Below, in pieces: positions 16,094-30,700 of a DNA stretch of 64,000 nucleotides (its first letter is position 1; every line of letters begins with the position of its first letter). The translations under genes and the position numbers were made by a program. This DNA comes from Woeseiaceae bacterium (lineage in GTDB: Bacteria; Pseudomonadota; Gammaproteobacteria; Steroidobacterales; Woeseiaceae). A model generated the notes under the pieces. It had not been told where the DNA came from, searched no databases, and saw nothing but the letters and a program-made list of their open reading frames with translations. The DNA lies in the NCBI GenBank assembly GCA_965224725.1, contig CBDCZZ010000001.1:37613-101612 (forward strand). The letters run 5' to 3'.

Positions 16094-17338
16094 ATGTCAT
16101 CAGGAGACGATCTCGGCTCGGAAATCACCGAGCTGTGCGCCTACATTTCAGTAGCCACCTACCAGCTGCTCTGCAAGATTCGCGAGTTTGATACTGGGCG
16201 CTACTGGGAAGCGCAGGGCTTTCGTTCGTGTGCCCACTGGATGAATTTTCATTGCGGTTTGGGGATGAATTCTGCGAGGGAGCGATTGCGAGTCGCGTAC
16301 GCGTTGGCGACATTGCCGAAGATCAGCGAGAAGTTTTCGAAAGGGCAACTTAGTTATTCGATCGTGCGGGCCATGACCCGGGTAGCCGATGCCGACAACG
16401 AAGAGTTTCTGGTGATGGTTGCTGAGCATGGAACAGCGAATCACATGGAGCGCCTGGTGCGCCAGTATCGTCGAGCCTGCAAACTACAGAATGAAGACTT
16501 CGCCTACGAGCAGTATCAAACAAGAGAAATGAGCTACCACTACGATGATGATGGCTCCGTGGTCATGAAGGTGAAGATGCCGGCCGAGCGGGGCGAGCTG
16601 GTGATCAAGGCGCTTGAGAAGATGATGGACGAGGACCTTCAGGAAGAGGCCGAGGTCGTCGAAGGCGAGGAAAAGCTGACGGCGAAAACACGTCGCGCTG
16701 ACGCGCTGTTGCATATCGCCGAGGATTACCTGAACGGTGGCGACTCGTCAGCCAGCACAGCGGATCGCTACCAGGTGGTGATCCACAAAACGGAGCACTC
16801 ACAGGAAGTTCAGCATGGCCCACACGTTTCAGCGGAAACGTGCCGCAGAATGTCCTGCGACTGTTCGAAGGTGGAAGTCACGGAAGACGAACACGGTAAA
16901 CCATTAAGTATCGGCAGGAAGTCACGAACCATCCCGCCTGCTATCAAACGCGCACTGGTTGTCCGCGATGGCGGTTGTCGCTTCCCGGGCTGCACCAACT
17001 GTCGTTATGTCGTTGGCCACCACATCCAACACTGGTCGAAAGACGGGGAGACGAGCTTGGATAACCTCGTGCTGCTGTGCGACTTCCACCATCACCTGGT
17101 TCACGAGGGTGGTTTCGATTGCAGGAAGTCCGACGATGGCGAAATTTACTTCGTCGACAAGCGAGATGAGCCGTTGGATGAAAGCTCTAACCCACGACCG
17201 ATCTCAATCGAGAACTCGCTGGCCTGGATGCGCGGCCGATATTCGAAGTTCGACGTTTCAGCGGAAACGTCGGTCAGTGGTTGGAAAGCTGGAGAGAGAA
17301 TGGATACTGCCTATGCGGTTTCGCTGATGTTCAACTGA
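16094..17338 (+). CDS. DUF222 + HNH endonuclease (REP13E12-like family)
   Basis: N-terminal DUF222-like helical region. C-terminal HNH motif CRFPGCTNCRYVVGHHIQHWSKDGETSLDNLVLLCDFHHHLVHEGG. Confidence 0.85.
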   Translation: MSSGDDLGSEITELCAYISVATYQLLCKIREFDTGRYWEAQGFRSCAHWMNFHCGLGMNSARERLRVAYALATLPKISEKFSKGQLSYSIVRAMTRVADADNEEFLVMVAEHGTANHMERLVRQYRRACKLQNEDFAYEQYQTREMSYHYDDDGSVVMKVKMPAERGELVIKALEKMMDEDLQEEAEVVEGEEKLTAKTRRADALLHIAEDYLNGGDSSASTADRYQVVIHKTEHSQEVQHGPHVSAETCRRMSCDCSKVEVTEDEHGKPLSIGRKSRTIPPAIKRALVVRDGGCRFPGCTNCRYVVGHHIQHWSKDGETSLDNLVLLCDFHHHLVHEGGFDCRKSDDGEIYFVDKRDEPLDESSNPRPISIENSLAWMRGRYSKFDVSAETSVSGWKAGERMDTAYAVSLMFN

Positions 17339-21561: not shown

Positions 21562-22398
21562 TTACTGTCGTGCCTCCCAGGCATCGCTGTAGCGACGTAT
21601 GCGCCAGGTACTGAGCTTATCGCCGTTTGAGAACTCGTCGCGACGGGACGTGACCTCCAGCATGGCTTGCCCGATCGACTGCGCGCGTACCGCTGCTCCA
21701 ACCGGGGAGAAGAAACCATACAGCATCTCCTGGCCGAGATGAGATTCCTCGTCGGTCGGGCCGATGTAGTCCGGCCGGTATGCGATGACCTCGAGATTCG
21801 TTCCCTCGGCCAGGCCAAACAGCTTGTTCTCGGCTTCGACCTTCACACGCGCCCACATGGCACTCGAGTCTTCCGATATGTCGCTCGAGCTGACGTAGTG
21901 AAACGCGATTTCGGGGCGACGTGCGATGCGAAGCCATTGCTCTACGAATTGCATCGGAAAATCGATGTGGATAAGCCGGTAATCATCCTCCTCCATACCG
22001 ACAGAGCTGATGCCAATAGCCCAGTAAACGGCGTCGACATTCGAGAGTCGATCGATGATTTTCGAGTAGTCGAGATAGTCCATGTGCTCAGTCACGACGA
22101 GCTTGCCGGTCTTCAGTCCGTCTTCCATGCGCGGGGTAATACGCCGCGTGATGATATGAATCGTTTCAACAGACGGGTCGGACATGGCTGCCTTGAGAAT
22201 GCCATCGCCCGCGGTGCCACTTGCGCCGAATATAGCAATGGTCGGAGTCATTGCTCTCACTCCGTCGTACTCGGGTGCGGTGTTGTCAAAGGTTGCTACG
22301 CGAATCGCGATGACAACGTAGAAGACGAAAAACAGCACGACAGGCGTCAGGAGGATGGTTCTTAAGCGCGGCATCTTCATGGGGCCGCATGTTAGCAT
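21562..22398 (-). CDS. NAD(P)H-binding (NmrA/SDR-like) protein with N-terminal TM helix
   Basis: IAIFGASGTAGDGILKAA Rossmann motif after a hydrophobic N-terminus. The exact start is uncertain (ATG at 22398, 22380 or 22374). Confidence 0.7.
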   Translation of the reverse strand: MLTCGPMKMPRLRTILLTPVVLFFVFYVVIAIRVATFDNTAPEYDGVRAMTPTIAIFGASGTAGDGILKAAMSDPSVETIHIITRRITPRMEDGLKTGKLVVTEHMDYLDYSKIIDRLSNVDAVYWAIGISSVGMEEDDYRLIHIDFPMQFVEQWLRIARRPEIAFHYVSSSDISEDSSAMWARVKVEAENKLFGLAEGTNLEVIAYRPDYIGPTDEESHLGQEMLYGFFSPVGAAVRAQSIGQAMLEVTSRRDEFSNGDKLSTWRIRRYSDAWEARQ

Positions 22399-22405
22399 CG
22401 CTCAC

Positions 22406-22810
22406 GTGAGCAAGCCGCCCGATCAAACCATCGCAGAGAGAATTCGCCACGCGCGTGAGCAGGCACAGATGCCGCCCGCGGAGCTGCGACAGATTCTCAG
22501 ACAGGACTACGGGATCGATTTGTCGAAGACTGGTCTGCACCGTCTTGAGAATGTCGATTCCAAGAATCCCAACCTGAAACTCATCCAGGCGATCGCAAAG
22601 ATCACGCGCGTTTCGCCGAGCTGGATCCTGTTTGGAGAAGGTACGTCATTGCCTGGCGATGAGGTAGGAAGCGCCATTCGTTCGCGCGTTATCGATACGA
22701 TCGAACTGATGATCGGCGCTCTCGACATGTCGTCGAGGCAGGAGTCGACGATCAACAATTGGCTCAAGAGTGTTCGCGAAAATCCACCGAAAAAAATACG
22801 CAAACCCTGA
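22406..22810 (+). CDS. XRE-family helix-turn-helix transcriptional regulator
   Basis: IAERIRHAREQAQMPPAELRQIL...LKLIQAIAKITRVSPSWILFGEG is a classic HTH_3 pattern. GTG start at 22406 is a guess (the ORF is open from 22355). Confidence 0.7.
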   Translation: MSKPPDQTIAERIRHAREQAQMPPAELRQILRQDYGIDLSKTGLHRLENVDSKNPNLKLIQAIAKITRVSPSWILFGEGTSLPGDEVGSAIRSRVIDTIELMIGALDMSSRQESTINNWLKSVRENPPKKIRKP

Positions 22811-22814
22811 TTAT

Positions 22815-22835
22815 GTGAACGTCGTTCACTTTTTC
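22815..22835 (+). terminator. Hairpin GTGAACGTCGTTCAC + T5, likely terminator of the XRE gene (could double as an operator)
   Basis: Perfect 7+1+7 palindrome directly after the stop codon, followed by TTTTT. Confidence 0.4.
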
Positions 22836-22858
22836 GGAACCAATGTTCATCTTAAGTG

Positions 22859-22886
22859 TTGACATGCTTCCTGACGTGCGTATACT
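22859..22886 (+). promoter_or_regulatory. Near-consensus sigma70 promoter (TTGACA - 16 nt - TATACT)
   Basis: TTGACA at 22859-22864 and TATACT at 22881-22886. Confidence 0.5.
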
Positions 22887-22892
22887 CCCGCG

Positions 22893-23139
22893 CACTATGA
22901 AAACTTCCATCAAACAACTTGGCTGGTTATTCGCCGCGCGGTATTGCGCAGACGGCGATGCGCGCCTGTGCGTCCGAGATACGCATATGGGCTCAAGCCT
23001 TATTGATGCGATTCCCACAAATAGCGGGGAACCGATGACGTAGCTTTCCAAGAATGGTTCCTGGAAGGCTCGAACAGATACCTTCCGGGAAAGCTCCAAG
23101 GAGAAACCCCGGCTGGTTTAAACCAACCGGGGTTTTTTT
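22893..23139 (+). ncRNA. Orphan transcription unit of about 245 nt (candidate sRNA or near-leaderless 47-aa peptide)
   Basis: Bounded by the promoter above and a strong intrinsic terminator. The only ORF (ATG 22898, stop 23043, MKTSIKQLGWLFAARYC...) has no SD. Confidence 0.35.
23105..23139 (+). terminator. Rho-independent terminator
   Basis: CCCCGGCTGGTT...AACCAACCGGGG stem (about 10 bp, one mismatch) followed by T7. Confidence 0.75.
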
Positions 23140-23159
23140 ATGCCCCGCGTTAGCTCTTT

Positions 23160-23182
23160 AACAATGCGGATTGTGTAGACGT
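23160..23182. repeat. Left copy of a perfect 23-bp inverted repeat, AACAATGCGGATTGTGTAGACGT
   Basis: The exact reverse complement occurs at 26375-26397. The element contains an internal dyad, ACAAT-GCGG-ATTGT. Confidence 0.9.
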
Positions 23183-24156
23183 TGGGGCAGAGTCTTTCAG
23201 GGGAAAGTCTGCGGCTTCCAGACATGGCTGTGCGCGTTCGCGCCTGCCCCCAACGTAGTAAGAATTCTGGTCTACCGGTTTCGGCCGGGGTCCTTAATAG
23301 CGGCCTGGCGCTGCTAACCGTCGGTAACGGCGGGAAAGGGGCACTACCCATGGTGTCTCGCCGGTGTAATGCCGGTCCGACCAGGCAAGTTCGGCCTCCA
23401 ATGTCCTCGGCTGCGGCCGGGGATAGCGGTAGAGCGATGCGCGGAAGTAGCGAGCCTATGTACCTTCGGGAATACAGGTTCGTGAAAGAACACGTGGTGG
23501 TGCAACCCGCGATACCAACTTCGTGAATCGTGAGAGGTAACGAATAGTGCAGGCAAGTACGAGCTTTGCAAGCGAGTGCGCCTGTGCAGATTTTTGGGGT
23601 TCCGGCGTGCAGCCAGCGTCCTGAAAGTCGGTCAAGTAACCGGCAGGTGAACGACATTCGGCGTGTTGTATTTCGTGGCCCAAAAGGCGACGAAGCGACT
23701 GAGACACGCACGTCGAAATGGGCATTTGTGTTTTTAGCTCAGCATGGCAGAGCAATCGATCGTTAGTCGATGGGTCGCCGGTTCAAATCCGGCATCACAC
23801 ACCGAAACGTAAACGCAAAGACGTGTCTCGGTACAGCCTGAAAATGGCTTAAAGCCGAAGCCTTTTGGCAATTCGGCAGATGAGAGGGCCGCAAGCCCGC
23901 TCATCTTCGGCAACAAGCCGCACGGTTGGGGAGCACCCATTTGGAGCCCGCAAAGCTCACGGTAAGCGCGTTGCTGAATACGGCTGTACGACGAGTGATT
24001 CGCCACACTCCAAAAAAGGCAGTCATGAGCATCTACTGTCGTGCCGGCTTCGGCCGGGCGGCAGTGGACAAGGACGCAACGGCGCCCGGCAGGGCGGTCC
24101 GGTACTCGTACAAAAGGATGCTCGTAAAGCGCTTAGTCTCAGCGCTTTTTTCTTTT
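23183..24156 (+). ncRNA. Candidate large structured RNA (ORF-free, about 0.97 kb) with an embedded tRNA-like domain
   Basis: No credible CDS. Hand-checked helices: 23179-23190 with 23244-23256 (12 bp, 1 bulge); 23698-23708 with 23822-23832 (11 bp, enclosing the tRNA-like element); hairpin 23878-23906; UUCG-capped CCGGC/GCCGG hairpin 24044-24057; terminator-like hairpin plus U-run 24127-24156. Boundaries are approximate. Confidence 0.45.
23728..23801 (+). tRNA. tRNA-like element, anticodon GUU (Asn) by position; degenerate acceptor stem and C33
   Basis: Hand fold: GTGTTTT/TA/GCTC-AGCATGGCA-GAGC/A/ATCGA-TCGTTAG-TCGAT/GGGTC/GCCGG-TTCAAAT-CCGGC/ATCACAC/A. Only 5 of 7 acceptor pairs. C instead of U at position 33. 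No encoded CCA. Confidence 0.5.
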
Positions 24157-24160
24157 CAAT

Positions 24161-24236
24161 GTCGAGCTTAGCTTAATGGTAAAGCCCCTGGTTGTGAGCC
24201 AGGCAGATACCGGTTCGAGTCCGGTCGTTCGACCCA
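24161..24236 (+). tRNA. tRNA-His (GUG) with G-1:C73 and encoded CCA
   Basis: Hand fold: G(-1) TCGAGCT/TA/GCTT-AATGGTA-AAGC/C/CCTGG-TTGTGAG-CCAGG/CAGAT/ACCGG-TTCGAGT-CCGGT/CGTTCGA/C/CCA. The extra 5' G opposite C73 is the His identity hallmark. Confidence 0.85.
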
Positions 24237-24328
24237 CATACCTTAGGCCCGTGTTCGGGCGCGGCGACCAGACCGCAATTCAATGCTGGGAGGCGAAAGC
24301 CCGGGGAGCATCATGCTCTCCGAATTCT

Positions 24329-24404
24329 ACGGCCGTAGCTCAGTGGACAGAGCGTGACTGTGCGAAGGTCAAAGTCGGAGGTTCGAGTCCTCCCGGCCGT
24401 ACCA
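24329..24404 (+). tRNA. tRNA-Arg, anticodon GCG, encoded CCA
   Basis: Hand fold: ACGGCCG/TA/GCTC-AGTGGACA-GAGC/G/TGACT-GTGCGAA-GGTCA/AAGTC/GGAGG-TTCGAGT-CCTCC/CGGCCGT/A/CCA. Perfect 7-bp acceptor stem. G at position 32 and a GCG anticodon are unusual for bacteria. Confidence 0.75.
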
Positions 24405-24411
24405 ATCTTCT

Positions 24412-24485
24412 TCGGTGCTCGTCCAAGGGCAAGACGCGAGACTTTGAATCTCGAAATCGTGGTTCGAGTCCACGGCGCCGATCCA
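24412..24485 (+). tRNA. tRNA-Gln (UUG), encoded CCA
   Basis: Hand fold: TCGGTGC/TC/GTCC..AGAC/G/CGAGA-CTTTGAA-TCTCG/AAAT/CGTGG-TTCGAGT-CCACG/GCGCCGA/T/CCA. U1-A72 and UC at positions 8-9, as in E. coli tRNA-Gln. Only 7 nt after the Arg gene. Confidence 0.8.
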
Positions 24486-24491
24486 TACAAA

Positions 24492-24570
24492 GGCCGTCTG
24501 AAGGGAATCTGGCATACCTACCTGTCTCAGAAACAGGTGCTTCCCGGTTCGACCCCGGGGGCGGCTACCA
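24492..24570 (+). tRNA. tRNA-like gene, anticodon CAG (Leu) but with a short 5-nt variable loop
   Basis: Hand fold: GGCCGTC/TG/..GGAATCTGGCATA../CCTGT-CTCAGAA-ACAGG/TGCTT/CCCGG-TTCGACC-CCGGG/GGCGGCT/A/CCA. Leu-like D-loop and A73. It lacks the class II long variable arm and the D-stem is irregular. Confidence 0.55.
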
Positions 24571-24711
24571 GTTTTGACATCGCGACTGTCATACCGAGGT
24601 TTATCGTATCGGAAAGACTTTGCGGTTCGGGTTCTCTGAATTCCCGTCCGGCACGCCGAAGCTAACCATTGTAACGCGTGTACCAAGTGCTCCGAATGAT
24701 GCACCGCCACC

Positions 24712-24784
24712 TGAAAATTAGCTCAGTGGGTAGAGCATACGAAATGTACTCGTAAAGTCGCTGGTTCGACTCCAGCATTTTCAA
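24712..24784 (+). tRNA. tRNA-like gene, anticodon UGU (Thr) by position, A33, no encoded CCA
   Basis: Hand fold: TGAAAAT/TA/GCTC-AGTGGGTA-GAGC/A/TACGA-AATGTAC-TCGTA/AAGTC/GCTGG-TTCGACT-CCAGC/ATTTTCA/A. All stems are perfect, but the loop AAUGUAC lacks the near-universal U33. Confidence 0.55.
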
Positions 24785-25151
24785 CTGGCCTCAGAAGCCA
24801 CTCAGGAAAAGGCCCATGGCCTGCGGTTCGACTCCGCTCCTGGCAGGGATACTGCCTCAAACCGCAGCCACCTCCAGCGAAAGTTTGCCTGAGACATCCC
24901 CGTCGAAGGTGAACGAGTAGCAGCAACCCGGTTGCCGGTCGACGAGTTGCTCGTCGTGTCCGAATCTCAATCCAGTTTCATTCCGAGCATTTGCGATTCG
25001 TCGCATTCGCTCCGACTGATACCGCATCGACATTCCGGCAGGTCGGACACCGTCTTCCCGCTCCCCGGTTGTGGAGGTGCGCTGCACCAAACTTTTTCCC
25101 GCGTTGCATCTGCGGCGTTTTTTTCTCACCGCGAACTAAAAGGAGGTGATC

Positions 25152-26300
25152 ATGTTCTACATGAAGGCAATTGTGCGTAAGCACGAACGTGCACTCCTGT
25201 TCCGTGACGGTGACTTCGTCAAGTTCATCGAGCCTGGCGTACACCGTTTCGCAACGTTGCTGCACAAGGTAGCGCTGGTCCGTTTCGATATCACGGATCT
25301 CGCGTTCACTCACCCGCTGGAGGACTTTCTCATTGAGAAGTACCCGGAGGACGTGAAGGGTTACTTCGATATCGTCGAAACCGGTACGGATGAGGTTGCC
25401 GTGGTTTACCACGATGACCACATCACGGCCGTGATGGCGCCGACCGAGCGCAAGCTGTTCACCAAGGGTGTCTACGACATCCGCGTTGAACGCTTCGAAG
25501 TCGTCGATAACCTCGACGTCGACAAGCGTCTCGCCAAGCGCCTGGCAACGGTCGCCGATGCACAGGTCAAGGCAATTGCCGCGAAGCTGGTATTCGCAAC
25601 CACGGTACCGGAGGGCCACACGGGTCTCCTGTACGTGGATGGTGAGCTCAAGCGTTCGCTGAACGCCGGCTACCACGCGTTTCTGGCGGTAGACCGTGAC
25701 ATCGACGTTGCCAAATACGACACCCGCGTACAGACGCTCGAGGTATCGGGTCAGGAAATCCTCACCAAGGACAAGGTTGCAGTTCGCATTAACCTGACCG
25801 CGACCTACGAGCTGACTGACGTCGAGAAGGCTGTCCGCGCTGCGCGTGATCCGCTCGATCACCTGTACAAGGAAGTGCAGTTTGCGCTGCGTGGTGCCGT
25901 TGGTACCCGCACTCTCGATGCGCTGCTGGAAGACAAGACGGTTATCGACACGTCGGTAGCTGATCACCTGACGGCACACTTCGAGACGATCGGTATCACG
26001 ATCAAGTCGGTTGGTGTTAAGGACATCATCCTGCCTGGCGATATGAAGGACCTGCTGGGCAAGGTGGTTGAGGCCGAAAAGGCGGCCCAGGCCAACGTCA
26101 TTCGTCGTCGCGAAGAGACCAACGCAACGCGTTCGCTGCTCAACACCGCAAAGGTGATGGAGACGAACTCGGTCGCGCTGCGTCTCAAGGAACTCGAGAC
26201 GCTCGAAAAGATCACCGAGAAGATCGGCAACATTTCGGTCTACGGTGGTCTCGAGTCGGTCCTGACCGATCTCGTTCACCTGAACAAGGGTGAACGTTAA
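25152..26300 (+). CDS. SPFH/band-7 (slipin-like) domain protein without TM helix
   Basis: Strong SD (AAAGGAGGTGATC-ATG). Central SPFH pattern (EVSGQEILTKDKVAVRINLTATYELTD...LRGAVGTRTLDALLEDK) and a coiled-coil C-terminus (VVEAEKAAQANVIRRREE). Confidence 0.85.
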   Translation: MFYMKAIVRKHERALLFRDGDFVKFIEPGVHRFATLLHKVALVRFDITDLAFTHPLEDFLIEKYPEDVKGYFDIVETGTDEVAVVYHDDHITAVMAPTERKLFTKGVYDIRVERFEVVDNLDVDKRLAKRLATVADAQVKAIAAKLVFATTVPEGHTGLLYVDGELKRSLNAGYHAFLAVDRDIDVAKYDTRVQTLEVSGQEILTKDKVAVRINLTATYELTDVEKAVRAARDPLDHLYKEVQFALRGAVGTRTLDALLEDKTVIDTSVADHLTAHFETIGITIKSVGVKDIILPGDMKDLLGKVVEAEKAAQANVIRRREETNATRSLLNTAKVMETNSVALRLKELETLEKITEKIGNISVYGGLESVLTDLVHLNKGER

Positions 26301-26302
26301 GT

Positions 26303-26360
26303 GTAGGAGCGGCTTCAGCCGCGATGCATTTCGCAACTGAAGTTGCTCCTACATCTTTTT
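26303..26360 (+). terminator. Long REP-like hairpin (about 19 bp) + T-run, terminator of the SPFH gene
   Basis: GTAGGAGCGGCTTCAGCCGC...GCAACTGAAGTTGCTCCTAC pairs 26303-26323 with 26332-26352, followed by ATCTTTTT. Confidence 0.7.
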
Positions 26361-26412: not shown

Positions 26413-26988
26413 ATGATTGAGAGAATTTTGAAACTGGATATTGGTGGACGCCCGATCGCGTGGATTACCCGCGAGGAGGGCGCCCTGATGTACTGCCGTG
26501 ACCAGGTTGCCTGGGAGGCCGGCATGGAGCACATCGTGCTGCGTGGTGGTATCTCGCGCGTGACCGGCGGTCGCTCGGTGCTCTTCGTATCGACGATCGT
26601 TGCGGCAAACGATGTACACCGCGGGCTGGACCTGCTGAATGACGTGCCGGCGCTGACCAACAGACGCCTGTTCCGTCGCGACAACCACATGTGCCTGTAC
26701 TGCGGCGACTACCTGTACGACTGCGAGCTGACTCGCGACCACGTCGTTCCGGTATCGCGCGGCGGCCCGGACACCTGGGAAAACGTCGTGACCGCATGCC
26801 GAATCTGCAACCACCGCAAGGCAGATCGCCTGCTCGACGAATGCGGCATGAAGCTCTTGGCTGTGCCTTACGTGCCTAACCGCGCGGAGGGCCTGATCCT
26901 CGAGAACCGCCACATCCTGGGAGACCAGATGGAGTTCCTGAGGGGACACGCGAAGCAACGCAGCGATTTGCTGTACACCTATAAGTAA
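26413..26988 (+). CDS. HNH endonuclease with an uncharacterised N-terminal domain
   Basis: CLYCGDYLYDCELTRDHVVPVSRGGPDTWENVVTACRICNHRK is a canonical HNH/zinc motif. Start placed at ATG 26413. Confidence 0.8.
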   Translation: MIERILKLDIGGRPIAWITREEGALMYCRDQVAWEAGMEHIVLRGGISRVTGGRSVLFVSTIVAANDVHRGLDLLNDVPALTNRRLFRRDNHMCLYCGDYLYDCELTRDHVVPVSRGGPDTWENVVTACRICNHRKADRLLDECGMKLLAVPYVPNRAEGLILENRHILGDQMEFLRGHAKQRSDLLYTYK

Positions 26989-27002: not shown

Positions 27003-28412
27003 ATGGCGTTTCTCCATGAAGTAGAAAAAGTGTCGGACGCACACTACGTGCTGCCCAGGATCGGTGACATGCGCACCGAGGTGCACGCGTACCTGTCGGA
27101 TACGCTGTTCGCCCAGACGGACGAAGCACTCTGGCGCCAGGCTGCGCAGGCGGCCGCGTACCCGGGTGTTATCGGTCTGTACCTGATGCCGGACACCCAC
27201 CTGGGTTATGGCATTCCGGTTGGCGGCGTTGTCGTCACCGAGGATGTCATCATCCAGGCCGGTTCGGGCTACGACATCTCGTGTGGTGTCGTGTACCTGA
27301 AGGTGCCTGACCTGACGGCGGCTGACGTCGCCGACTGGGACAAGCGTCGTGCGTGGATCAATGACGTCGAGCAGCGTATTGCTACCGGCGTTGGTTCGCA
27401 TCGCCCGAAGCATATGCCGCGCCTGAACGAGTCGAAGATCGAAGACATCTTTCACTACGGTGCCAAGGCCATCGGCGTTCACGCCGATGTCTGCGAGCGT
27501 CAGTACATTGATGTCGACGAGCAGGTACTCGATTCGGAGCGAATCAAGCGTGCGCGCGACAAGGCGTGCCCGCAGATCGGTTCGGTTGGCGGCGGTAACC
27601 ACTTTGTCGAGATGCAGGTCGACAAGCATGACGGCTCGGTGTGGGTAATGATTCACTGCGGCTCGCGCGGCTACGGCTGGCAGACCGCGAACCACTACTT
27701 CTACGCCGGCGCCGAGCTGCGCGGACTCGCGAAAAACCGTCGCGAGGACTCGTGGCTGCGTGTCGACGAGCCACTCGGCAAGGAGTACTGGGCGCACCAC
27801 AACTCGGCAGCAAACTACGCGGTCGCAAACCGCCACATCATTGTGCGCGGTGTGCAGACGGCGCTTCAGAATGTCTACAACGCATCGGCTGACGTCTTCT
27901 TCGAGATCTCGCACAACCTGGTGCAGGAAGAGACGCTCGTGCTGCCGGACGGTACGACCAAGAAGGGCTTTGTTCACCGCAAGGGGGCGACGCGTGCGTT
28001 CCCGGCGGGACACCCCGACCTGGTTGGTACCAAGTGGGAGAAGACCGGTCATCCGTGCCTGGTTCCGGGCTCGATGCTGGATGGTGCTGCCATCCTGTAT
28101 CCGCTCAAGGGAGCCTTCGACACGGGTTGCTCGGTCAACCATGGCTCGGGCCGCGTGATGGCGCGCGGCAAGGCGAAGCGTGAGCTCGCCGAGATGCACG
28201 ACGACATCGATAACGAAATGCGCTACATCAAGCGCACGCTCGGCGGCGTCGAAATTCAGGGCATCGTCGGCAACACGCGTCGCACGCCGCTCGACGAGTG
28301 CGGTCATGTGTACAAGGATCTCGATGAGGTCCTGCGCGTACTGGAGACGGAAGGTATCGCCCGCGTGGCAAACCGACTGTACCCGGTCGCAAACATCAAG
28401 GGCGCCGATTAG
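27003..28412 (+). CDS. rtcB: RNA 3'-phosphate/2',3'-cyclic phosphate - 5'-OH ligase RtcB
   Basis: AGGAGG SD. RtcB signature motifs: GYGIPVGGV, SVGGGNHFVEMQ, IHCGSRGYGWQ, ISHNLV, HRKGATRA, VPGSM, SVNHGSGRVM. Confidence 0.92.
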   Translation: MAFLHEVEKVSDAHYVLPRIGDMRTEVHAYLSDTLFAQTDEALWRQAAQAAAYPGVIGLYLMPDTHLGYGIPVGGVVVTEDVIIQAGSGYDISCGVVYLKVPDLTAADVADWDKRRAWINDVEQRIATGVGSHRPKHMPRLNESKIEDIFHYGAKAIGVHADVCERQYIDVDEQVLDSERIKRARDKACPQIGSVGGGNHFVEMQVDKHDGSVWVMIHCGSRGYGWQTANHYFYAGAELRGLAKNRREDSWLRVDEPLGKEYWAHHNSAANYAVANRHIIVRGVQTALQNVYNASADVFFEISHNLVQEETLVLPDGTTKKGFVHRKGATRAFPAGHPDLVGTKWEKTGHPCLVPGSMLDGAAILYPLKGAFDTGCSVNHGSGRVMARGKAKRELAEMHDDIDNEMRYIKRTLGGVEIQGIVGNTRRTPLDECGHVYKDLDEVLRVLETEGIARVANRLYPVANIKGAD

Positions 28413-29316: not shown

Positions 29317-30090
29317 ATGTATACGGATATCCAGTTGCGCGAGATCTTTCACTTCTGCTTCCTGAACAGGTTGCTGAAGACGACTGATATTGAGCTATTC
29401 GTACTCAAGGGTGGCGTCAACCTTCGCTTCTTCTTCCAGAGCCCGCGTTACTCCGAGGACATGGATCTCGATGTTCTTGGCGGCAGTGTCGCAACGCTCA
29501 AAAAGAACGGCTACAAAATACTCAACGACGCGTCCTTCCAGCGCAGCCTCAAGGTCTTCGATATCGACTCGGTCGAAATCAACGATCCACACAAGGCCAA
29601 ACACACCAAAACGACACAGCGCTTTCGCTGTTCCCTGGTCCGTTCGTCCGGGCAGCAATTGCCAACCAAGGTCGAATTCTCACGTCGTGCCGACGAGGTT
29701 CGAGAGCTGACGATTACCGAGCAAGTAGACCCCGGTATCGCGCTCCCTTATCGAAAGCTGGCGTACCCTTGCCGGCATTACAACGGAACCGCGGCCGTTG
29801 CTCAGAAGATTGAGGCGCTGGCCGGCCGCAGCGTGGCGCAGGCGCGCGACGTATTTGATTTGGGCATTCTGCAGGCGGGTGGCCACCTCGCGTCGGCTGC
29901 AGATCAGGACAACTTCCAGGATCTGCCCTTTGCCGCCGCAATCGATGCTCTACTGTCCCTGCACTGGGAAGATTATGAAGGCCAGGTGCTCGAATATCTC
30001 GCGCCAGAGATCCTTGGAGAATTCGGGAGTCGGGACGCTTGGGTAAATCTGCAGAACGAGATCTACGAAGTACTGCTGGCTCATGCTTGA
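29317..30090 (+). CDS. Nucleotidyltransferase AbiEii/AbiGii-family toxin (DUF1814)
   Basis: FVLKGGVNLRFFFQSPRYSEDMDLDV matches the LKGGTAL..SPRFSEDLDF signature of the family. Confidence 0.85.
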   Translation: MYTDIQLREIFHFCFLNRLLKTTDIELFVLKGGVNLRFFFQSPRYSEDMDLDVLGGSVATLKKNGYKILNDASFQRSLKVFDIDSVEINDPHKAKHTKTTQRFRCSLVRSSGQQLPTKVEFSRRADEVRELTITEQVDPGIALPYRKLAYPCRHYNGTAAVAQKIEALAGRSVAQARDVFDLGILQAGGHLASAADQDNFQDLPFAAAIDALLSLHWEDYEGQVLEYLAPEILGEFGSRDAWVNLQNEIYEVLLAHA

Positions 30091-30700
30091 TTTGCTGCAG
30101 AAACCGGACTTTGTCGTATTCACGACTCGCGATGCCGCTGTTGCCGACGGCGTATCAGTTTCAGCTGCATCGAGAAGACTGACGCGAATTGCCGAAGGTG
30201 GGGCGATCAAACGAGTTACCAAGGGCGTTTGGGCAAATACACAGCACCCACACTTTCATCCCCTGTCCTGCGTACCATACTTGCTGGGGAAAGAGCAGGG
30301 ATACGTATCATTCCTCTCTGCATTGCACCTGCATGCAGCGTTGTCGCAGATTCCTGCCGTTATGATGGTCGCCACAACTGGTCATGGCCGAAAGCTCGAT
30401 TCTCCAGTTGGCAGGTTTGAGTTTTTCCGGGTCAAGCCGGAACTTATGCGTGATGGCGTTGCGTGGTCAGATACCCGGCAGCCATACCTGATGGCGACTC
30501 CGGAAAAAGCCTTGTTGGACGTCTTGTACCTTTCGACAAGAAAAAAGCGTCGCTTCTCTCGATTACCGGAGCTCATCTTGAGCGATAGCGGATTTCGGGT
30601 AACGGAGTTCAGGCGCCTGCTTAAGTCCTTGCCATACTCCAAGCGGGTACGTTCAGCGATCAATTCCAGGTGGGAAGGCCTGGCGCCGCAGATTAGCTGA
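30083..30700 (+). CDS. AbiEi-like antitoxin / wHTH regulator
   Basis: N-terminal wHTH pattern FTTRDAAVADGVSVSAASRRLTRIAEGGAIKRVTKGVWAN. Overlaps the upstream toxin gene by 8 nt. Confidence 0.7.
   Translation: MLDLLQKPDFVVFTTRDAAVADGVSVSAASRRLTRIAEGGAIKRVTKGVWANTQHPHFHPLSCVPYLLGKEQGYVSFLSALHLHAALSQIPAVMMVATTGHGRKLDSPVGRFEFFRVKPELMRDGVAWSDTRQPYLMATPEKALLDVLYLSTRKKRRFSRLPELILSDSGFRVTEFRRLLKSLPYSKRVRSAINSRWEGLAPQIS

Follow-up and report, generated by a model that had tools for sequence, protein, structure and literature searches.

We analysed a 64,000-nt stretch of DNA from a Woeseiaceae bacterium (GenBank assembly GCA_965224725.1, contig CBDCZZ010000001.1), referred to here as the window, and conclude that positions 23265–24150 on its + strand are the gene for a GOLLD RNA. 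This RNA represents a divergent, GC-rich, proteobacterial branch of the GOLLD family and lies within a cassette of genes on the same strand, for which we propose a mechanism. We put the probability of this reading, mechanism included, at roughly 0.85. The family is already known; the branch and the cassette setting are not previously catalogued. A preliminary description, made from the sequence alone, had placed a large structured RNA at 23183–24156 and suggested a member or relative of the GOLLD/ROOL type of large RNA. The class assignment stands, as GOLLD, on a full-length match to RF02032 and on covariation. The proposed start was ~80 nt too far upstream, since the conserved RNA begins at ~23265.

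A full-length match to the GOLLD family

In a permissive Rfam cmscan of 22700–25000, the GOLLD model RF02032 matches 23656–24145 (+ strand) over all of its 416 positions (1–416), with a score of 147 bits and an E-value of 1.5e-40. It is the only significant match to a large RNA: ROOL, OLE and tmRNA give no match at E ≤ 10 in the same scan, and a match to RNaseP-T is negligible (15 bits, E 2.5). The GOLLD score falls 3 bits below the Rfam curated gathering cut-off of 150 bits. Hence, GOLLD is absent from standard Rfam annotation, and a default Rfam scan of the whole window reported tRNAs only.

The full-length RNA spans 886 nt (23265–24150, + strand), with a U-rich tail to ~24156, and is conserved from end to end in 16 other loci. 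Its G+C content is ~57%, and the fold z-score of the 886-nt stretch against shuffles is -5.6. Along its >800 nt, a 5ʹ domain that covaries is followed by a hairpin, by a linker that a pseudoknot closes, and by a conserved 3ʹ domain.

The 3ʹ domain (23830–24145, + strand) lies within the RF02032 match and is the conserved core of that family. The conserved hairpin that opens the Rfam model (23656–23718, + strand; model positions 1–63 in the cmscan alignment) is found directly 5ʹ of the linker. We took the consensus structure of the Rfam model, as aligned by cmscan, and placed it on an alignment, A4, of 17 non-redundant full-length sequences including the window, and added the helix that closes the linker (23701–23708/23822–23829). 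Across these 17 homologs, 88.2% of cells are paired, and 68 of 106 pairs have changed on both sides. Sliding the partners lowers this number to 11–24 pairs, and none of 500 shuffles reaches 68. Because the Rfam structure derives from unrelated seed sequences, this covariation is an independent test of membership of the GOLLD family. Changes on both sides affect 12 of the 23 pairs in the opening hairpin and all three pairs of the Rfam final helix; one Rfam helix (helix 12 of the covariation test) is just 50% paired in the branch to which the window belongs.

Single-stranded motifs are also common to the window and the model consensus, namely UCUCAG in the last loop, GUGGA.A, a CAAAAG hairpin loop and CGCAAG loops. 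All of these are invariant or nearly so in A4. Furthermore, a profile of the 3ʹ domain of this branch detects the GOLLDs of Cp1R7A-A1 (E 4e-16), phiCbK (2e-8) and Erythrobacter phage L02 (4e-6). Several structures singled out in the preliminary description find their place in this domain. The nested hairpin at 23878–23906 corresponds to two Rfam GOLLD helices, and a CCGGC-UUCG-GCCGG hairpin is present at 24044–24057, as it had been drawn. The terminator-like hairpin and U-run reported 5 nt before tRNA-His (24162) is the last GOLLD hairpin with its U-rich tract (24126–24156, + strand), recovered by a terminator scan; its loop, UAGUCUCAG, is invariant in A4.

Relatives of the window copy

Starting from the window, we identified 16 more full-length copies, with 55–93% identity, in genomes and metagenomes. 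These relatives show compensatory changes in both the 5ʹ and the 3ʹ domain. One search used a 3ʹ-domain pattern of three motifs common to the window and the Rfam consensus. In viral contigs, this pattern retrieved 20 sequences, 18 of which carry a canonical GOLLD scoring 245–323 bits. Judged by these scores, the window copy is a divergent member of the family. On GTDB genomes the same pattern gave 67 matches, among which one close relative was established: L053, from a metagenome-assembled genome (MAG) of the Pseudomonadota. For the other 66, close relatedness was not established, and Rfam was not applied to each. L053 is alignable to the window over 23265–24150, and its RNA begins 2 nt past a tRNA-Ala gene. 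The contigs of homologs of the neighbouring HNH protein yielded two further full-length copies (L095 and L099).

A scan of metagenomes with two invariant 5ʹ-domain motifs gave 39 matches, of which 28 are family members and 11 are chance matches within coding DNA. An earlier metagenome pattern, AGTGGACAAG...GTCTCAGC, had no matches because the relatives have CGTGGACACG. Viral scans with blocks of the 5ʹ domain were empty in the first two cases and gave one chance match in the third. Blastn against phage and plasmid collections returned matches at the level of tRNAs only, and no similar phage record. A search of the published GOLLD alignment, which spans the Rfam core alone, for motifs of the window's branch found none.

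The 5ʹ domain and its independent copies

For the 5ʹ domain (23265–23655, + strand), RNAalifold gives a structure in which 94.8% of cells are paired and 61 of 120 pairs have changed on both sides. Slid partners give 15–23 such pairs, and 61 was reached in 0 of 500 shuffles. Is this domain homologous to the 5ʹ domain of other GOLLDs? A comparison of its motifs with those of AT-rich viral GOLLDs revealed nothing informative, and nhmmer gave only marginal matches. A covariance model was therefore needed. This model, R1, was built from 28 sequences and covers the final 110 nt of the domain. The published GOLLD alignment also lists GC-rich phage examples, four of which were fetched for comparison. 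R1 has just four cross-family matches: phiCbK (E 9e-4), Cp1R7A-A1 (0.003), vB_EliS-L02 (0.03) and a GOLLD from IMG/VR (0.08). All four are on the correct strand and end ≤6 nt from the start of the Rfam GOLLD. The E-values are individually modest; the agreement in position at four of four loci is decisive. We conclude that the 5ʹ domain of the window shares ancestry with that of other GOLLDs, at least at its end.

Nine distinct related loci have an RNA that is homologous to the 5ʹ domain alone and is placed between tRNAs. These RNAs lie at L091 4712–4920 (the same as in L092 and L094), L096 7486–7719, L098 401–632, L100 6433–6745, L107 129–456, L109 1276–1718, L116 3934–4261, L139 1346–1672 and L124 815–1174. 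Several end in a hairpin of their own and some are without peripheral hairpins; the structure described by R1 is retained. Rfam detects no GOLLD 3ʹ domain in the nine loci at E ≤ 1e-3. The occurrence of these genes in nine related cassettes suggests that the GOLLD 5ʹ domain is capable of existing as a module of its own.

A tRNA-shaped insert in the linker

The linker varies between 52 and 103 nt among the homologs and is closed by a pseudoknot helix in which 23701–23708 pairs with 23822–23829 (+ strand). This helix is 99.3% paired, with compensatory changes in six of eight pairs, and forms the core of an 11-bp helix that had been drawn around a tRNA shape in the preliminary description. The tRNA shape itself is a linker insert at 23728–23803 (+ strand), called as tRNA-Asn(GUU) by ARAGORN and scoring 51.4 bits with the Rfam tRNA model. 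The C33 and degenerate acceptor stem previously noted are both confirmed: the anticodon GUU is preceded by C33, and the acceptor stem has mismatches at 5-68 and 6-67.

Where the arms of the insert are present, the anticodon stem is 98.5% paired (four of five pairs compensated), and the T stem is 100% paired with compensatory changes. The acceptor stem is 67.5% paired, and the mismatches 5-68 and 6-67 recur in relatives with an intact insert. The anticodons found across the homologs are GUU, CAG, CCU (twice), CUU, CCA, UGA, GAU and AUU, that is, eight different anticodons among the nine homologs (of 17 sequences) that have a readable 7-nt loop. The remaining inserts comprise two with 6-nt loops, two that ARAGORN does not recognise, and four of which only a T arm or a remnant of the D arm is left. 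Since the stems are kept, the anticodons vary and some copies are truncated, the tRNA shape is under selection in most members, with an unfixed anticodon, and the element is dispensable. The preliminary description took the element for a structural module and not for a tRNA that decodes, a view consistent with the hypervariability of the anticodon, with the loops of 6 nt and with the truncation seen in some relatives.

Could the insert be a working tRNA gene, a tRNA-Asn in the window, that is stored in or released from GOLLD and whose anticodon shifts to fill local gaps? An “inhibited storage” of this kind has been proposed in a review (PMC12990946). Where the loop is recognisable, it has the frame C32-U33-NNN-A37-A38, and the compensation in the anticodon and T stems would suit a tRNA in use. 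No embedded anticodon repeats that of another tRNA in its array, and the embedded Asn(GUU) of the window and Ile(GAU) of L137 match tRNAs that are usual in such arrays yet missing from these two. However, the complete arrays behind this pattern of complementation are few, and it does not reach statistical significance. The window copy has C33 in place of a near-universal U, and two of its seven acceptor pairs are mismatched. Moreover, the Leu(CAG) and Ser(UGA) versions retain a body with a short variable arm, several copies have 6-nt loops or unrecognisable arms, and four are truncated. We therefore regard a working tRNA as unlikely.

The tRNA shape could alternatively be a cleavage site. RNase P and RNase Z would then cut at the insert, and the locus would yield two RNAs, a 5ʹ-domain RNA and a 3ʹ-domain RNA, that stay separate or re-associate. 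The cloverleaf of the insert is recognisable, cryo-electron microscopy (cryo-EM) shows the 5ʹ and 3ʹ regions of GOLLD as separate domains (PMC12286853), and the RNAs that consist of a 5ʹ domain alone in nine loci sit between tRNAs, have their own closing hairpin and are without the Rfam GOLLD 3ʹ domain. Against this, the acceptor mismatches that are kept in relatives with an intact insert could blunt processing, and four relatives keep both domains though most of the tRNA shape is lost. In addition, the covarying pseudoknot spans both sides of the linker, and in Mycobacterium the embedded pseudo-tRNA did not show up as a product by itself (PMC6582537). We consider cleavage into two RNAs somewhat more doubtful than a working tRNA, and favour a single GOLLD RNA whose linker carries a tRNA-shaped structural module.

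Boundaries of the RNA and the operon leader

In most relatives, GOLLD starts 2 nt past tRNA-Ala(UGC) and ends 1–3 nt before tRNA-Asp(GUC). The ends of GOLLD are probably set by the enzymes that process these tRNAs. The upstream tRNAs have been lost in the window, so GOLLD directly follows the operon leader; L053 has three tRNAs between the leader hairpin and GOLLD, the maximum in the relatives. The leader hairpin of the window is branched (23179–23256, + strand) and is conserved in nine loci. It includes the 12-bp helix 23179–23190/23244–23256 of the preliminary description, which is present, with one bulged C, as an element of the operon leader and not as part of GOLLD. The leader is found in nine cassettes, two of them wholly without GOLLD, and hence belongs to the operon and not to GOLLD.

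Upstream of the hairpin, and likewise outside GOLLD, is a boxA of the rRNA-operon type with its spacer, GCTCTTTAACAAT (23153–23165, + strand). This sequence is invariant in the nine cassette leaders, those of the window, L053, L088, L091, L095–L097, L099 and L100. The boxA-spacer of the E. coli rrn operons is ugcucuuuaacaau (PMC2724277), and GCTCTTTAACAAT of the window is identical to it. A boxA at the head of the array implies that the tRNA operon would be subject to antitermination by Nus factors.

The region between the first gene of the cassette and boxA (22859–23141) contains, all on the + strand, a predicted near-consensus σ70-like promoter (22859–22886; 11 of 12 positions match), a small open reading frame (ORF) of 48 codons (22897–23043), nested leader hairpins (23044–23100) and, just before boxA, a predicted intrinsic terminator (23108–23141) that was found by a terminator scan and whose stem covaries. 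L053 keeps the promoter, the terminator and the start context of the small ORF; the peptide that the ORF would encode is not conserved. This arrangement looks like an attenuator, and Rfam gives weak matches to a His leader and to a PyrR-like element in 22859–23141.

A tRNA-array cassette on a bacterial chromosome

The cassette reads, entirely on the + strand, repressor, promoter, small ORF and terminator, boxA and leader hairpin, GOLLD, five tRNAs, SPFH, HNH and RtcB. At its head is a helix-turn-helix repressor-like gene (22355–22810), which matches PHROG families of transcriptional repressors and is 71% identical to its counterpart in L053. In other cassettes, a gene of 131–136 aa occupies the repressor position. 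The five tRNA genes that follow GOLLD (24162–24785) are those for His, Arg, Gln, Leu and Thr; they were called by ARAGORN, which reports six + strand tRNA genes when the embedded Asn(GUU) is included, and Rfam confirms four of the five. The call that the Rfam tRNA model did not report in either scan is tRNA-Leu(CAG) (24492–24570), which is 79 nt long. Several “Leu” tRNAs in such arrays are just 76–79 nt.

Downstream of the array are genes for an SPFH/Band_7 protein (25146–26300), an HNH endonuclease (26413–26988) and an RtcB RNA ligase (27003–28412). All three are on the + strand and have Pfam and PHROG matches, with further evidence from codon-position G+C for the first. A 452-aa ORF on the opposite strand (24978–26336) was rejected as a gene: it has no homologs, and its G+C at third codon positions shows it to be a shadow of the SPFH gene. 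Such shadow ORFs are a trap for gene calling by ORF length in GC-rich DNA.

In eight or more other chromosomal neighbourhoods, from Pseudomonadota MAGs (L053; L088–L100), the genes follow the same order, with arrays of up to ~20 tRNAs. Most of these cassettes have SPFH/Band_7, HNH and RtcB after the tRNA array, sometimes with an additional 308-aa protein of unknown function, and one HNH relative is annotated as Woeseiaceae. The cassette of the window is flanked by genes of ordinary metabolism, and a scan of 28 distinct ORFs from 7984 to 37127 turned up no structural, integrase or lysis genes of phages. Hence, the expected position beside tRNA genes is borne out, but the expected prophage-like region is not; the RNA is encoded in a tRNA-array cassette of the chromosome. 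An AbiEii toxin-like gene, next to a weakly AbiEi-like one, lies a short way downstream of this cassette (29317–30700), and upstream is a DUF222-HNH gene (16094–17338). These genes suggest a variable, island-like region.

Proposed mechanism and alternative readings

How might the cassette work? We propose that the adjacent repressor, and perhaps the leader terminator too, keeps the array silent. On induction, RNA polymerase would become resistant to termination at boxA, which would let it traverse GOLLD, structured and untranslated as this is, together with the terminator-like hairpin at its end. GOLLD would be freed from the precursor by the enzymes that process the tRNAs on either side. Copies of the released RNA may then assemble with one another into a multimeric cage that is hollow and has the linker and tRNA-like insert on its inner side. 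Self-assembly into cages has been seen by cryo-EM for two GOLLDs only, env-38 and that of S. agalactiae; these cages are 12- to 14-mers that hold the linker inside, sometimes with a tRNA (PMC12286853; PMC12990946). We infer cage assembly of the window GOLLD by homology with these RNAs.

What would such an RNA be for? The literature assigns no function to GOLLD (PMC12286853; PMC12990946). In Anabaena, TrcR represses a trn array together with HNH, rtcB and a slipin gene, and inhibitors of translation induce this set (PMC8421152, PMC10272220). The gene set of the window cassette (spare tRNAs, RtcB, HNH and SPFH) matches this translational-stress regulon. The parallel suggests an array that would be silent in growth and induced by stress, and the most likely role would be in coping with damaged or depleted tRNA and with stalled translation, as might be caused by toxins, antibiotics or conflict with phage.

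A more elaborate proposal combines several of these ideas, and we offer it as speculation with a low chance of being right in full. GOLLD would be part of a self-contained, repressor-controlled cassette for the response to tRNA damage, and not a phage accessory. Its cage could show or hide a tRNA bait, with an anticodon loop that is in a race with anticodon nucleases, or could scaffold or compartmentalise tRNA repair by RtcB; the 5ʹ domain would be autonomous, and perhaps ring-forming.

Several points weigh against our favoured reading, a GOLLD gene in a regulated tRNA-array cassette. The Rfam score lies 3 bits under the curated cut-off, and that of the relative L099 (8268–8714) is only 134 bits. 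Canonical viral GOLLDs that we fetched score 245–323 bits against 147 bits here, and it is from such distant relatives that multimer formation is extrapolated. The structure of the 5ʹ domain was predicted from the very alignment in which its covarying pairs were counted. The pattern used to retrieve 13 of the 17 aligned sequences included GCGGCCTGGCGC and CCAGGCAAGT, so that one 5ʹ helix (GCCUGG/CCAGGC) is invariant in part because of how the sequences were chosen. The promoter, the attenuator, the function of boxA and the processing sites are all predictions from sequence. Lastly, the repressor has a helix-turn-helix, and is not a ribbon-helix-helix protein like TrcR, such that the regulatory parallel with Anabaena is one of gene content only.

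Might the window copy have no function and be in decay, as what is left in the chromosome of a GOLLD that a phage once carried? A low Rfam score and the lack of phage genes nearby would fit, as would an array that is down to five tRNAs, with its upstream tRNAs lost, as compared to 16–20 tRNAs in relatives. However, 129 of 226 tested pairs keep their pairing through double changes in 17 sequences that are 55–93% identical, and a divergence of this size among the homologs excludes recent copies of one element. The long invariant blocks, the strongly negative fold z-score and the maintenance of the whole cassette in many genomes also argue against decay. We consider a remnant very improbable.

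The ORFs over GOLLD are 103–197 aa long, with 114–197 aa for the longest, and so exceed the “only short” ORFs of the preliminary description; none of them is conserved or has a coding signal. Unlike the neighbouring genes, these ORFs have flat G+C across codon positions. Variable columns in the homologs have no 3-base periodicity, and every ORF of the window is broken in homologs by stops or frame-shifting indels; no protein-coding frame is conserved. The idea of a different RNA class (ROOL, RNase P, tmRNA, OLE or Y RNA) or of a protein-coding region can effectively be set aside, since beyond the length of these ORFs and the weak RNaseP-T match there is nothing in its favour, GOLLD alone gives a significant match, and the ORFs are interrupted, without codon-position bias, and have indels that are not in threes.

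Comparison with known systems

GOLLD (Weinberg 2009) is among the largest bacterial RNAs of unknown function, and cryo-EM of env-38 and S. agalactiae GOLLD has shown it to form protein-free cages (2025). Its occurrence in tRNA arrays of Mycobacterium is reportedly also a subject of Morgado 2020, as cited in PMC12286853. The proteobacterial branch described here, at 134–147 bits, escapes routine Rfam annotation. Its parallel with the gene set of Anabaena provides a testable hypothesis on when GOLLD is made, and with which partners. The comparison of linker tRNAs points to a shape that is retained and an anticodon that is free to vary, and the natural versions that have a 5ʹ domain alone could reveal the role of each half of GOLLD. 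The tRNA-array setting is itself known; to our knowledge, the context of repressor, boxA, SPFH, HNH and RtcB is undescribed for GOLLD.

The window copy shares with the GOLLD family (RF02032) the full 3ʹ-domain match, the covarying helices, the UCUCAG last loop, the order of variable 5ʹ domain, linker and 3ʹ domain, a length >800 nt and a position among tRNAs. It differs in having extra hairpins in two loops of the 3ʹ domain (24040–24060 and 24079–24104), in its score (147 bits as compared to 245–323 bits for viral copies), in its ~57% G+C, and in its location on a proteobacterial chromosome and not in a phage or prophage; its cage is a prediction only.

The nearest phage GOLLDs are those of phiCbK, Cp1R7A-A1 and vB_EliS-L02, both by the 3ʹ-domain profile and by R1 at the end of the 5ʹ domain. 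Caulobacter phage phiCbK and Mesorhizobium phage Cp1R7A-A1 have a tRNA annotated inside GOLLD, as in the window. In contrast to the window copy, the alphaproteobacterial GOLLDs are phage-borne, and most of the 5ʹ domain of the window is unalignable with theirs. In Mycobacterium phage PegLeg (L145), GOLLD (1547–2422) is followed by tRNA-Gln and then by an HNH endonuclease gene. The gap between the GOLLD core of PegLeg and the tRNA before it is only ~260 nt, leaving room for no more than a short 5ʹ domain, if there is one at all.

Mycobacterial GOLLD is found in tRNA arrays together with HNH and an unexpressed pseudo-tRNA (Behra 2019, PMC6582537). As in the window, the tRNA array is horizontally acquired and lies in a bacterial replicon, there is an HNH gene, and a pseudo-tRNA lies in the linker. 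The phylum is different, however, and there is no similarity at the level of nhmmer or blastn outside the core. Relative to the mycobacterial arrays, the cassette of the window adds an adjacent repressor, a boxA leader, and the SPFH and RtcB genes.

The L-array/TrcR regulon of Anabaena has the same partners, namely a tRNA array, HNH, RtcB, slipin/SPFH and a dedicated repressor. It differs in that no GOLLD is reported and in that TrcR, a ribbon-helix-helix protein, is encoded elsewhere and controls a dispersed regulon, whereas the window has a helix-turn-helix repressor and all partners in one compact cassette.

In the rsr-yrlBA-rtcBA operon (PMC7790460) of Salmonella, a Y RNA with a tRNA-like domain is encoded beside RtcB; Y RNAs are ~100 nt long and bind the Ro protein. 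The likeness to the window is that of a structured non-coding RNA with a tRNA-like module beside RtcB. The Y RNA is unrelated to GOLLD in sequence and structure, and the cassette of the window is without a Ro or RtcA gene. Finally, ROOL is, like GOLLD, a large, ornate, cage-forming RNA found near tRNA islands, but it has a different fold, and the absence of any ROOL match at E ≤ 10 in 22700–25000 sets the RNA of the window apart from it and with GOLLD.

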